This document shows positions 6,637 through 43,878 of a stretch of 64,000 bases of DNA, one piece after another. Within the stretch, counting starts at the first letter, position 1, and the number at the start of each line of letters is the position of its first letter. This DNA is from Candidatus Cloacimonadales bacterium (GTDB taxonomy: Bacteria; Cloacimonadota; Cloacimonadia; Cloacimonadales; JAFGVF01): contig CAXXJV010000001.1 in NCBI GenBank assembly GCA_963663475.2, positions 1,952,001-2,016,000 of the forward strand, read 5' to 3'. A model generated the notes under the pieces. It saw nothing but the letters and a program-made list of their open reading frames with translations, had not been told where the DNA came from and searched no databases. The position numbers and the translations under genes were made by a program.

Positions 6637-8541
6637 GTGCGTCACGAGGTGGTGTGCCGTCAACTGGTGAAAATCCAGTCTGGTTAATTTTCTGTTCAAC
6701 CAGAAGTGAAAAAGACAGGCTTGTTCAGTAATGGCAAGTCTGAAGCTCTTTGAATCGGTAAGTAAGCCGTAGCGAAAGCGAACAGGTAGCTTCGTTAGAT
6801 AATTGTAATCGGTCAATCTTTCCCAATGGATGAAACCTGCTATTTGATAGGAAGTAACAGAAATATGCACTATCAAAGATTACTGGAGTTATAACTGATG
6901 GCGTGCTTATAAATGATTGCACACTAAACGTGAGAGAGCCTATTTAATAAGAGATGACAACTCTAAATGGATTTCTATAAGACGGAGTCGAAGTGAAATT
7001 CAGTTATTTAGGCAGTCGGAGATGCCCATAGTAGTGATGATATTTGAGACAACATAACTCAAAAGTAGCGAAGGGGCATTACTTCAAAGAAATTTACAAG
7101 ATAAGGAGAAAGTTGTGATTGATGAAAATCTAACAAACAAACGAAAAGCTGATTTATCAGCAGAGGAAAGAGTTCGAATTTTTCAACGTAAATTATATTC
7201 TAAAGCCAAACAAGAAAAGGATTTTCGTTTTTATGTACTGTATGATAAGTTAACAGTGGGATATTTTCTAAGTGAAGCTTGGAGAAGGGTAAAGTTAAAT
7301 AATGGGATTGCTGGATATGATAAAAAGAGTTTTTCTTATATTGAAGAATGTGGAATAACAGACTTTCTTTTTGAGATTCAACAAGAACTAAAAGACGAAA
7401 CTTATAAACCATCTCCAATACTACGAGTATATATTCCTAAAGCAAATGGTAAAATGAGGCCATTAGGTATTCCGACCATAAAAGATAGAGTAGTTCAAAT
7501 GTGTTGCAAGCTAATAATTGAACCAATCTTTGAAGCAGATTTTGAGGATTGTTCACATGGTTTCAGACCAAAGCGTTCAGCCCATGGAGCTATTAAAGAA
7601 ATAAAGTCTAACCTTAAAGCTGGAAAAACAGAAGTATATGATGCAGATTTGTCTGGTTACTTCGATAATATTCCACATGATAAACTAATGTATCTTGTGG
7701 AAAGAAGAATAACAGATAAAAGGATATTAAAGCTAATTAGAATGTGGCTAAAAACACCATATTTTGAGAAGAACAAATTGCACAAGAGTAAAAAGGGAAC
7801 ACCTCAAGGAGGCGTTATTTCCCCTTTACTGGCAAATATATACTTAAATCTTGTTGATAAAGCTATCAATAGGGAAGATGGATTTTTTCGCTAAAAGAGG
7901 CATAAAAATAGTACGTTATGCTGATGACTTTATCTTAATGGGAAAGCAAATACCCCAAGAGTGCTTATCGTATTTGCACAGAATGCTGGAAAGAATGGAG
8001 TTAACTGTTAATCTAGAAAAAACGAAACACCTGAATGCAACAAAACTATCTTTTGACTTTTTAGGTTTTACTTTTAGGTTTGATAAATCATTTTACAACT
8101 CGTATGGTTATTACTGGAATGTGATTCCAAGTAAAAAGAGTGTCAAAAAGTTTAAGGCAAATATTAAGAATTGTCTTATGAATAATGGACATTCATCAAA
8201 CTATACGATAGTAAAGAAGCTCAATCCAATATTAAGAGGTTGGACTAACTATTTTACAATACCTAAAGTAAGCTACCCTGCAAAGGCTAAAGATAGTGTT
8301 AATTCTTATCTCTTTTTTAGTCTAAAGAGGTATTATAAGCGCAAGAGTCAAAGGAGCTGTAAGCTTTATCGTCAAAATGCTCATGATAAGTTAATTAAAC
8401 ATTATGGTTTATATAACTTAGCATACAGGTCCTCTTGACAAACTTGTGAATGCTTAGAATGAACTTTGTCGGTAAGCCGTGTGCGGGAAAACCGCATGCA
8501 CGGTTTGAAGAGGGGGGCAGGGAATCCTGCCTCTACTCTAC
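6637..8541 (+). mobile_element. Group II intron (IIB-like domain V; intron-encoded protein without En domain)
   Basis: 5' end GTGCG at 6637, domain V AAGCCGTGTGCGGGAAAACCGCATGCACGGTTT at 8474-8506, and domain VI hairpin ending ...CTCTACTCTAC at 8541. Confidence 0.9.
7115..8438 (+). pseudogene. ltrA: Group II intron reverse transcriptase/maturase, frameshifted
   Basis: RPLGIPTIKDR, HGFRP and GTPQGGVISPLLANIYL lie in ORF 7115-7894. YADD and domain X (LNPILRGWTNYF) lie in ORF 7851-8438. Removing one T from the T6 run at 7883-7888 joins them. Confidence 0.88.
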
Positions 8542-41815: not shown

Positions 41816-41878
41816 ATCCTTCCTTTACACTCTTTCGATGAAAGTCCAGGTTTCATCGAAAGAGTGTAAAGGAAGGAT
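41816..41878. repeat. Perfect 28-bp-arm palindrome (related copy at 63286-63360)
   Basis: atccttcctttacactctttcgatgaaa-gtccagg-tttcatcgaaagagtgtaaaggaaggat. Confidence 0.85.
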
Positions 41879-42013: not shown

Positions 42014-42712
42014 TTATTTTATATTCGTTTCAAAATACTTTAGAGCAGCCACTTGCCATTGAGAGAAATCTGAAGTCATATAATAAAGTACTCTACAATG
42101 CTTTCTGAAATTTCTTAGCTCATCATCAGAGAGATCTTTTCCATAAATTAAGTAGATTTTGGATTGGTCTAGAAATCTTTCAGGAGCTTCTAGTAATTTC
42201 TCTTTGGGAATATTTATAGCCTGATCAATCGCCCCTTTCACGTATAAGTCAGAATCCCTTAAATCTATTATTTGCAGATTCTTCTTGTAGAAATCTATTA
42301 GCTGGAAAGTTTCTGCTGCTATGATATTTTTATTTTCATAATCGAGATGTTTTTCTGGTTTATTTATCAATCCATGGGCAAATAAATCAATATTATAAAG
42401 CTTAGTATCTTCTTGTAAATGAAACTTGAGATTTAGAGAATCAAAAATGCACAGGAAATCGTAGGATATCTTTAAAGATAAATTATGACTCTGGCCAGGA
42501 GATAATGACTTGATAAACTTATCAATAACCTTAACTCCTCAGCCACCATCGATTCTCTCTATAGTAATTTCAGAATCACTTTGATTAGTCACTTGGAAAG
42601 TATATAACTCAGATTCTTGATTAACTAAACGCAAAGTGAAAGGTCTTTGCTCATCAGCAAAAACTTGATTTGAAAATAGAAAAACTATTATCAAAAAAAA
42701 ATAAGATTTCAC
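42014..42712 (-). CDS. Putative selenoprotein: signal peptide + DUF1573-like Ig domain (Sec at codon 58) + rhodanese-like domain
   Basis: The frame runs from GTG 42712 to the stop at 42014 with one in-frame TGA (42541-42539) in TNQSDSEITIERIDGG-U-G. A SECIS-like hairpin follows directly. The C-terminus has IIDLRD..LY..GAI..AINIP. Confidence 0.72.
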
Positions 42713-42714
42713 TC

Positions 42715-43419
42715 TTAGAAATTCTCCACTTTATCGAAAATATAAGGTGAGTATGGTCCCATAACTATAGTACCAGCACTATTATATCCTAGGTCCCAAC
42801 TAGTAAGATAAGTGGGGAAGAGGGTTGTTTCTGAAGTTAAATAAGCAACTCCTGGTATTGAAGCACTACAATCTGTGCCTGAGGTTTCTCCAGAAAAATG
42901 GTCTCCGTTCCAATTAAATTCTAATCCACAGCCAGGTTTTAGAGTTAAATCATCTTCACTAATTTGATCAAAATCTTCAGGTGTTTCCCAAGCTCCCACA
43001 TAAGTTGCAGGACTAGGAATAGCATAGATTTCATCTTTTAACTGACCATTTTCTTCAAAGACTCGATAAACTCTTTGTCTGTATGGTGAACTTAACTGAT
43101 CAGCATAAGCTTGTTCTACATAGAGCCAATAGCCATTGTCTGTGGATAGGTGATCCCAAATTCTAACCATTTTCAATCTAACATCAACATGGTAAGGATC
43201 AGTGGAAGTTGCAGCTTGTTCCTCACTAGAAAAAGAACCGGTCATGTAATCGATTAATAATTCAAGACTGCCTGATTCATCTTGTGAAAAAGTAATATTT
43301 TCAATCTCATTTATATCAATCTCAATATTTGAACCATCTGTTTTGTTAATTATCATATTAGCAGAAAACAGATTTGCACATAGCGTAAGTATCATTAATA
43401 TTTTTATAAATTTTTTCAT
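42715..43419 (-). CDS. Secreted CpcT/CpeT-like (T-type bilin lyase fold) protein with a small N-terminal beta domain
   Basis: Signal peptide; G.FSS..QA, WLYVEQA...PYRQRVYR, GC.L and SWD.G motifs. Confidence 0.75.
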   Translation of the reverse strand: MKKFIKILMILTLCANLFSANMIINKTDGSNIEIDINEIENITFSQDESGSLELLIDYMTGSFSSEEQAATSTDPYHVDVRLKMVRIWDHLSTDNGYWLYVEQAYADQLSSPYRQRVYRVFEENGQLKDEIYAIPSPATYVGAWETPEDFDQISEDDLTLKPGCGLEFNWNGDHFSGETSGTDCSASIPGVAYLTSETTLFPTYLTSWDLGYNSAGTIVMGPYSPYIFDKVENF

Positions 43420-43428
43420 TTTATTCTC

Positions 43429-43878
43429 CTATTTGATTACTATCATTTTTTTTACAATTGATCTATCTTCATGAGTTAAAGAGTAGAAATATACCCCACT
43501 GGCAACTTGTTTATTATCATCATTTTTGCCATTCCATACAAACTCATGTCTTCCAGAATCAAGATTTTTATTTACTAACTGTCTTACTTTTTGCCCTTTC
43601 AAATTGTATATTTCCAATTTGCTTTTACCTTTACTATTCAACTCAAAAGCGATTGTTGTTCTAGGATTAAAAGGATTAGGGTAGTTTTTCAAGAACTTAA
43701 CAGGGATTGAATTGACTATAGTAGTCATATCTTCAATCGATACGTCTTCTGAGAAAGAAATATTAGCAATCTCAGAAAGGTCAAAAGAATATGTTTCGTT
43801 GCTTGTTTCTATGGTAATAGTTTCAGCAAATATATTTGAAACAAGAAGCAAGCAAATCAAAAAACAGAATTTTTTCAT
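43429..43878 (-). CDS. Small secreted protein: ~25-aa beta domain plus C-terminal sorting domain
   Basis: Signal peptide, ITIETSNETYSFDLSEIANISFS, then NYPNPFNP...VASGVYFY. Confidence 0.85.
   Translation of the reverse strand: MKKFCFLICLLLVSNIFAETITIETSNETYSFDLSEIANISFSEDVSIEDMTTIVNSIPVKFLKNYPNPFNPRTTIAFELNSKGKSKLEIYNLKGQKVRQLVNKNLDSGRHEFVWNGKNDDNKQVASGVYFYSLTHEDRSIVKKMIVIK

Follow-up and report, generated by a model that had tools for sequence, protein, structure and literature searches.

Does the minus strand at positions 42014..42712 of the DNA analysed here, a stretch of 64,000 nt from a Candidatus Cloacimonadales bacterium (contig CAXXJV010000001.1, positions 1,952,001 to 2,016,000; in the following "the window"), encode two small proteins separated by a stop codon, or one selenoprotein in which this stop codon, UGA, is read as selenocysteine (Sec)? 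The list of open reading frames (ORFs) made with translation table 11 gives the region as two ORFs, one of 57 aa at the head (42539..42712) and one of 118 aa at the tail (42014..42370). A first-pass annotation made by a model from the letters of the sequence had decided for the selenoprotein, an exported protein in which a DUF1573-like immunoglobulin (Ig) domain carrying Sec is fused to a rhodanese-like domain. The analysis reported below led us to the same answer: judged from sequence, the locus is very probably (with a probability of about 0.9) one real Sec-decoding gene that gene callers have split in two at its UGA.

The reading frame and its in-frame TGA

The full coding sequence (CDS) of the proposed selenoprotein (42014..42712, minus strand) comprises 232 codons and a TAA and begins with GTG at 42712. 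A single stop interrupts it, the TGA of codon 58 (42541..42539), in the peptide context ITIERIDGG-stop-GVKVIDKFIKSLSPGQS, and the 118-aa ORF of the list is the tail of this longer frame, both exactly as the first-pass annotation had described them. The start that had been proposed is likewise present: the GTG is separated by 2 nt from the TAA of the upstream ORF (42715..43419) and has a GGAG 11 nt upstream, and in the sequence read directly no other ATG, GTG or TTG intervenes between it and the in-frame stop before it. When the 522 nt 3' of the TGA were shuffled, 0 of 20000 shuffles stayed open in frame, which indicates that the open frame downstream of the TGA is more than chance.

Orthologs and coding constraint

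A six-frame search of 61 related genomes, including that of the window (G000; 3.30 Mb, 99.2% complete), revealed the gene in six of them, namely in G000 and in five others of the same family, the encoded proteins being 41–62% identical to that of the window. The CDS of all six orthologs is 696 nt long without an indel, and each has exactly one internal stop, which is a TGA and is located at codon 58. A seventh, remote match, in genome G012 (21% identity), is without a stop. A scan of genome contigs with one genome per species yielded only the same five orthologs.

The region 3' of the TGA evolves as a protein-coding sequence. The ratio of nonsynonymous to synonymous substitution rates (dN/dS) was 0.15–0.32 in 15 of 15 pairs. 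The frame in which UGA58 lies is constrained as coding sequence on either side of this codon. In codons 77–114, which extend from the end of the hairpin described below to the start of the 118-aa ORF, the corresponding ratio of the proportions of differences (pN/pS) was 0.33–0.67 in frame versus 0.60–1.86 and 0.89–7.39 in the two shifted frames.

Matching contigs were also found in wastewater and microbial-mat metagenome runs. Those of runs X5 and X7, which stem from two other studies, cover the TGA codon (that of X11 does not reach it); they are ~98–99% identical to the window over the aligned stretches and show no difference at 42539-42541. A TGG or TGC at this codon, which according to the first-pass annotation would have spoken against Sec, was therefore not seen in the contigs of X5 and X7. 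The search of sequencing runs listed none from RNA that holds the locus, which speaks neither for nor against its expression.

Selenocysteine machinery and genetic code of the genome

The search for the Sec machinery that the first-pass annotation had proposed as a check found it complete. In G000 the genes for selA (508 bits), selB (333 bits) and tRNA-Sec (62.5 bits) lie side by side (G000:C1:2346376-2349783) and selD was found with 358 bits, all four of selA, selB, selC and selD scoring above the curated cut-offs; ARAGORN predicted a tRNA-SeC with the anticodon TCA. According to the available text of PMC5330540, the tRNA-Sec of this lineage is of an unusual 7+5 type, for which reason heterologous decoding may need the cognate factors and those of E. 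coli may fail.

The selD gene of G000 (G000:C1:619467-620393, locus L010) itself carries one in-frame TGA (YSG-stop-GAKLSPE). The TGA is followed by a hairpin with the loop GGU, which begins 20 nt past the UGA; the offset of the loop G from the UGA is the same in selD and in the DUF1573-rhodanese gene of the window. As a separate observation, 14 of the 15 nt around the UGA are identical in the two genes (UGGCUGAGGAGCUAA in selD, UGGCUGAGGAGUUAA in the window's gene), the local peptides being G-U-G-A-K and G-U-G-V-K, respectively. This shared context could be a preference of the SelB or the ribosome of this lineage, or a coincidence.

An alternative genetic code, in which TGA is read as Trp or Gly, was considered and ruled out, since TGA terminates 9 of the 35 stop-to-stop frames of at least 200 codons in the window and the long ORFs are normal under table 11.

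The hairpin at the UGA

At the UGA codon the mRNA can form a stem-loop (42492..42545, minus strand) that resembles a selenocysteine insertion sequence (SECIS). When 66 nt from 42545 on were folded, a lower stem was formed by UGGCU/GGCCA and AGGAG/CUCCU and an upper hairpin (42510..42525) by UUGAUA-AGUU-UAUCAA, with the apical loop AGUU at 42516..42519. The minimum free energy (MFE) of the fold is −20 kcal/mol (z = −3.40), and an equally stable fold arises in 1 of 200 dinucleotide shuffles. The AGGAG/CUCCU stem, the upper hairpin with its AGUU loop, the distance of 19 nt between the loop and the UGA and the G in the second loop position are those that the first-pass annotation had drawn. The hairpins of the orthologs have energies between −8.3 and −16.6 kcal/mol, each with the upper hairpin UGAUA-AGUU-UAUCA of at least 6 bp.

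For bacterial SECIS elements (bSECIS), the legend of Fig. 2 in PMC13188914 gives a loop of 3–9 nt, an upper stem of 4–16 bp, a G among the first two nucleotides of the loop, as a rule with G or U after it, a spacing of 16–37 nt between UGA and loop, and an MFE of −7.5 kcal/mol or lower. The four published constraints all hold for the window's hairpin, in which the bSECIS pattern had already been recognized at first pass. Set against the E. coli-type bSECIS, the consensus model of bSECISearch as far as it is described there, the window's hairpin has a loop of 4 nt, an upper stem of 6 bp (up to 9 bp in the orthologs), a G at loop position 2 followed by U, a spacing of 19 nt and an MFE of −20 kcal/mol, and none of the features that define the model deviates.

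The 17-nt core of the element, ATTGATAAGTTTATCAA, is identical in 6/6 orthologs, synonymous sites included. The third positions of codons 63–67 are invariant in 5 of 5 cases, compared with 10 of the 52 degenerate codons with an invariant amino acid that lie outside codons 59–76. A search of Rfam at the gathering threshold gave no match at the locus, the only matches in the window being two to a group II intron. The element is called a SECIS because of its geometry, its stability, its invariance at the nucleotide level and the selD control, not because of covariation, which is considered below. By the proposed mechanism, the complex of SelB, GTP and Sec-tRNA(Sec) would bind to the hairpin loop (AGUU with G at position 2, 19 nt after the UGA) and, thus bound, would deliver selenocysteine at codon 58 (42539..42541), a codon that is TGA in all orthologs and falls on the Cys column of the Cys-type homologs.

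Domains and predicted structure

The predicted protein begins with a signal peptide-like sequence (residues 1–19, 42656..42712), MKSYFFLIIVFLFSNQVFA followed by DE, which, read by eye, looks like a Sec-type (general secretion) signal peptide, as had been proposed at first pass: Lys2 is followed by a hydrophobic core, and AlphaFold2 places a helix at residues 4–13. Cleavage sites of signal peptides follow the −3/−1 rule. In the six orthologs position −1 is small (A/A/A/A/S/S) and position −3 is V or I.

This N-terminus is followed by a DUF1573-like Ig or β-sandwich domain (approximately residues 24–110, 42383..42643), in which Sec58 is located in the turn after the strand 49–56. PF07610 (DUF1573) matches residues 32–80 with 20.8 bits (E 3.9e-4) and reaches E ≤ 0.01 in three of the six orthologs only. 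The C-terminal part is a rhodanese-homology domain (approximately residues 128–225, 42038..42331), which PF00581 (Rhodanese) matches with 28.4 bits, above its gathering threshold (GA) of 22.2, and which it matches in 6/6 orthologs. The catalytic Cys of rhodaneses lies in a loop with the motif CX5R. In the window's protein the active-site position is taken by Gly191 (in IYLIYGKD), and Gly is found there in all six orthologs, in agreement with the first-pass annotation, which had noted a rhodanese part with IYG and no obvious catalytic Cys.

The AlphaFold2 model calculated from a 22-row alignment (mean predicted local distance difference test score, pLDDT, 85.4; predicted template modelling score, pTM, 0.57) consists of a β-sandwich (residues 25–109; strands 25–33, 36–43, 49–56, 60–62, 75–82, 94–99 and 106–109) and an α/β domain (residues 129–230). 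Foldseek returned the single-domain rhodaneses 3o3w, 3ilm and 2kl3 as well as Ig-like or ASH-type domains with E values of approximately 1e-4 to 1e-3.

Homologs with cysteine in place of selenocysteine

An exhaustive profile search yielded 3490 proteins at E ≤ 0.001. The query profile (A1) contained the Cys homolog from G012, and its generic DUF1573 or rhodanese matches are not independent evidence; for this reason hhalign was run with the Sec rows and the Cys rows kept apart. Twenty listed matches were retrieved, 15 of which are full-length with both domains; Pfam, applied to five of the 15, confirmed DUF1573 plus Rhodanese. With hhalign the six Sec proteins aligned to 14 Cys proteins over 219 columns (99.2%, E 2.3e-19), the motif GgCGiK coming to lie on xCGCt. 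PF07610 scores 42–102 bits for P0046, P0004, P0027, P0029 and P0067, the first four of which are rows of the 14-protein Cys alignment and the fifth of which is not.

The first-pass annotation had suggested aligning homologs at the TGA column. While all six orthologs (including the gene of the window) have TGA there, the Sec column of alignment A4 has Cys in 14 of 16 Cys-type rows and K and N in the others, and never Trp. Where the motif is CGC, the column holds its first Cys; where it is CCGY, the column holds the second. The other Cys of CGC occurs in 10 of the 16 Cys-type rows, its place being taken by V, I or F in 6/6 Sec proteins. Cys88, which is invariant in the six Sec proteins, occurs in 0/16 Cys-type rows. 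At the rhodanese active site Cys is found in 8/16 Cys-type rows and Gly191 in 6/6 Sec proteins.

The Cys-type DUF1573-rhodanese proteins (for example P0046 with 248 aa, P0004 with 258 aa and the G012 homolog at locus L027) have the same order of signal peptide, DUF1573 and rhodanese as the Sec form and align with it over the whole length; the Pfam scores of P0046 and P0004 are 99–102 bits for DUF1573 and 51–74 bits for rhodanese. The rhodanese Cys is missing in half of the Cys-type rows (8/16), as it is in the Sec form. They differ from it in having Cys (CGC or CCGY) where the window's protein has Sec, and the identity is just 17–21%.

Judged by eye from the translations, the Cys-type copy in G012 has radical S-adenosylmethionine (SAM)-like and polyferredoxin-like neighbours and no CpeT gene (see below) nearby. 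At this locus (L027; G012:C13, 1..3580) there is an overlap of 4 nt between the Cys-type gene and the stop of a radical-SAM/B12-like gene. The Cys-type gene faces two further genes, one for a membrane polyferredoxin-like protein and one for an exported 2x[4Fe-4S] ferredoxin-like protein.

Weighing the selenoprotein reading against its alternatives

Several results weigh against a selenoprotein at this locus, or at least against parts of this interpretation. The covariation of the hairpin is not convincing: the upper stem never varies and so cannot covary, and the covariation of the lower stem is weak and not significant, the observed score of 0.086 being reached by 23 of 500 shuffles and exceeded by two controls slid along the sequence (0.095 and 0.124). 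A synonymous change at 42500 breaks one lower-stem pair in three metagenome strains. The invariance at the nucleotide level could partly stem from the conserved peptide IDKFI. With 41–62% identity, the gene has evolved much faster than its neighbours, which are 74–89% identical. A word-index protein search restricted to near the length of the query found no full-length homolog at E ≤ 0.001, and a metagenome scan with 220 pattern matches found no relative, one of its two patterns spelling Cys at the Sec codon and thus being unable to match TGA. The PF07610 score of 20.8 bits is under the GA of 26.1, so that the DUF1573 assignment of the first-pass annotation, right in kind by the hhalign result of 99.2%, is not carried by the Pfam score of the single sequence. 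The match to NCBIfam NF041425, "OS_HP2 family (seleno)protein", also has 20.8 bits and is far under the cut-off of 100.

The two results on the lower stem, the covariation that is not significant and the pair broken in other strains, would be accounted for if UGA58 were recoded by another route than Sec, that is, by a near-cognate tRNA (for Trp, Cys or Arg) or by the local context, with a hairpin that only slows termination. We regard this as improbable. The Sec machinery of the genome is complete and clustered, and at least one more selenoprotein gene with a UGA, selD, is present; the hairpin obeys all the bSECIS constraints, with the loop G at the offset found in selD; Cys, with which Sec usually pairs in homologous proteins, is found in 14 of the 16 homologs and Trp in none; and DUF1573 selenoproteins with Sec at the same motif are already catalogued in the available text of the reviews cited below.

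An even smaller chance is given to the formation of two products, an exported peptide of 57 aa ending at UGA58 and a downstream protein whose translation begins at an internal start, for instance that of the 118-aa ORF with its TTG. This is how gene callers read the locus: a representative protein library contains heads of 57 aa that stop immediately before the TGA (P0022, P0023) and tails of 118–147 aa (P0002, P0003, P0005), the ORF list of the window shows the same split, and no full-length Sec form was found in the library. Against this stands that the Ig domain spans the TGA, both in Pfam (residues 32–80) and in the AlphaFold2 model, which has strands on both sides, and that the coding constraint sets in right after the TGA and includes codons 77–114 (pN/pS 0.33–0.67). 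The candidates for a restart differ between the orthologs (codon 115 in one; 86, 99 and 111; 80 and further ones; 93 and 95), none between codons 59 and 120 being common to all six. A tail without a signal peptide would part the rhodanese domain from its exported partner, and the full-length Cys homologs are single proteins.

That the gene is a pseudogene in decay with a nonsense mutation, or that the TGA arose from a mistake in sequencing or assembly, already looks untenable: the low identity relative to the neighbours and the failure to find the gene in 6 of the 12 genomes of its family would fit such decay, but the same TGA codon is present in six independent genomes without any other stop or indel, the downstream dN/dS is below 0.35 in 15/15 pairs, 0/20000 shuffles are open, and contigs of two further studies agree at the codon. 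Together, the conserved TGA, the constraint, the open frame and the agreeing contigs make the pseudogene, sequencing-error and two-gene interpretations very unlikely.

If the locus encodes a selenoprotein, the public gene calls split it, and the annotation of these Cloacimonadales genomes therefore misses a selenoprotein.

What the proposed selenoprotein may do

The product of a Sec-decoding gene at 42014..42712 would be exported through its N-terminal signal peptide, and export would place its chemistry outside the cytoplasm. It would consist of a DUF1573-type Ig-like domain, with Sec in place of the near-invariant first Cys of CxC, and, behind it, a rhodanese-homology domain from which the catalytic cysteine has been lost. 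Tentatively, and with a chance that we put at somewhat less than even, such an extracytoplasmic protein with one reactive chalcogen could function as a redox protein, as a carrier of persulfide or sulfane sulfur, or as a soft-metal ligand. The part of the nucleophile would fall to Sec58. Since the partner Cys of CxC has been lost and an invariant Cys88 has been gained, a relocated resolving cysteine is suggested: the subfamily-specific Cys88 would replace the lost second Cys of CxC as the resolving partner and form a selenenylsulfide with Sec58. Weighing against this functional proposal is the low confidence of the model near Cys88, the mean pLDDT being 64 for residues 81–90. The inactive rhodanese domain may serve as a binding or docking module. 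As had been suggested at first pass, Sec58 may perhaps stand in for the missing rhodanese Cys.

Sec at the position of the first Cys of CxC would mark this residue as the reactive one and would thereby offer a handle on the function of DUF1573.

Relation to known selenoprotein families

Sec at this motif of DUF1573 is already known, although from predictions only, which lowers the novelty of the finding. From symbionts of Olavius, Zhang and Gladyshev predicted OS_HP2, at the time a new family of selenoproteins (PMC1976440, Table 2). In the available text of PMC2398784, OS_HP2 is equated with pfam07610 and has the motif UxC, with 2 Sec sequences and 354 Cys homologs in the Global Ocean Sampling (GOS) data, and in that of two reviews (PMC9312934, PMC13188914) there is an entry "DUF1573 domain-containing protein, UGC". 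As far as these sources describe it, OS_HP2 (PF07610, NF041425) shares with the window's protein the Ig-like domain, Sec at the first Cys of CxC, many Cys homologs and the status of a prediction. It differs in the motif, which is UxC or UGC in OS_HP2, U-G-V in the window's protein and U-G-I or U-G-F in its orthologs, the second Cys being lost in 6/6. Unlike OS_HP2 as described there, the window's protein has a C-terminal rhodanese fusion and the additional invariant Cys88, and it belongs to the Cloacimonadales, whereas the lineages given for OS_HP2 are Deltaproteobacteria or marine plankton.

Selenoproteins with a rhodanese-homology domain have likewise been catalogued, namely rhodanese-like forms 1–5 and rhodanese-related sulfurtransferases in the available text of PMC9312934 and PMC13188914. 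In these proteins, as listed there, Sec is located inside the rhodanese domain (UxxS, UxxG, CxU, UxxxxU). In the window's protein it is found ~130 residues upstream of Gly191, in another domain.

The DUF1573-rhodanese fusion, the motif UG[V/I/F] and the link to CpeT are not mentioned in the literature passages found on DUF1573 or on selenoproteins of Cloacimonadota, a search that did not extend to BSepDB (PMC13326102) and to supplementary tables. By the rule of the catalogue, as the available text of PMC9312934 states it, proteins that differ in motif or architecture are placed in subfamilies of their own; with its UG[V/I/F] motif and its rhodanese fusion, the protein would therefore be a new subfamily of the catalogued DUF1573 selenoproteins. 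Neither a new kind of recoding nor a new mechanism is involved.

The neighbouring genes and a bolder reading

The selenoprotein gene is the last of a trio on the minus strand. The gene directly upstream (42715..43419), whose stop lies 2 nt before the GTG, encodes a protein of the CpeT/CpcT family (DUF1001) with a signal peptide-like N-terminus, which PF06206 (CpeT/CpcT) matches with 126 bits (GA 21) over profile positions 2–180 of 181. The first gene of the trio (43429..43878) encodes a protein of 149 aa with a C-terminal sorting domain of the type IX secretion system (T9SS; Por_Secre_tail and FlgD_ig in Pfam, TIGR04183).

Both neighbours are conserved with the selenoprotein gene. The CpeT-like gene is adjacent in 5/5 orthologous loci (81–89% identity), and the T9SS-tagged gene is kept upstream in 5/5 (74–85% identity). 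A CpeT-like ortholog is present in the same 6 of the 12 genomes of the family as the selenoprotein gene and was not found in the other six. In the CpeT search 16 genomes gave any match, only seven of which cover the CpeT domain, the rest being confined to the N-terminal 50–140 residues. A remoter CpeT homolog (in G018, 41%) is without such a selenoprotein partner. The genomic contexts of the G012 Cys homolog and of the G018 CpeT homolog showed no shared neighbours and hence provide no clue to the function.

The selenoprotein would probably act jointly with the CpeT/CpcT-like protein, which is translationally coupled and always co-inherited with it. This strict pairing supplies a partner for experimental tests.

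Cyanobacterial members of the CpeT/CpcT family are bilin lyases, enzymes that link a bilin to a cysteine in an acceptor protein. The literature search brought up no paper on CpeT/CpcT members from non-photosynthetic bacteria. The pairing with the CpeT-like gene, coupled and present in the same six genomes, allows a bolder reading, which is a long shot: the selenoprotein and the CpeT/CpcT-like protein might form an extracytoplasmic lyase-acceptor pair, in which the homolog of the lipocalin-type lyases would load Sec58 with a small ligand, either tetrapyrrole-like or another vinyl or electrophilic compound. The ligand would sit on the selenolate as a selenoether-linked cofactor, with the dead rhodanese domain used for docking. 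If true, this would be the first Sec that serves as a covalent attachment site of a cofactor and not as a redox centre. The interpretation given above, of a redox protein, a carrier or a soft-metal ligand, is the one that we prefer.

Two further observations concern the trio. Within this translationally coupled cassette (42014..43878, compared with loci L022–L026) there is an unusually steep difference in rate, the identity being 41–62% for the selenoprotein and 74–89% for its neighbours. Over ~50 residues at their N-termini, the CpeT-like protein and the T9SS protein of 149 aa are similar (INKTDGSNIEIDINEIENITFSQDE and IETSNETYSFDLSEIANISFSEDV). This short module gives weak matches in many unrelated proteins of related genomes, again N-terminally, and so seems to be a leader or mini-domain specific to the lineage.

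Other features of the window and the genome

Approximately 140–200 nt past the stop of the selenoprotein gene, at 41817..41877, there is a perfect inverted repeat of 27 nt with a spacer of 7 nt. Allowing up to 3 mismatches, the 27-mer occurs 95 times in forward and 93 times in reverse orientation in the genome, often as facing pairs, while a control with the reversed pattern gave 0 matches. The repeat belongs to a genome-wide family and looks like a palindromic element similar to repetitive extragenic palindromes (REP) or miniature inverted-repeat transposable elements (MITE).

The main home of DUF1573 in G000 is another one, an open frame of 7668 aa (G000:C1:2313271-2321901) with at least 10 DUF1573 repeats, of which eight score above the cut-off of Pfam or close to it, and no internal stop.

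The group II intron mentioned above (6661..6797 and 8472..8541, plus strand) was recognized by RF02003 with 62.3 bits and by RF00029 with 56 bits and is located in the window ~34 kb from the selenoprotein gene.

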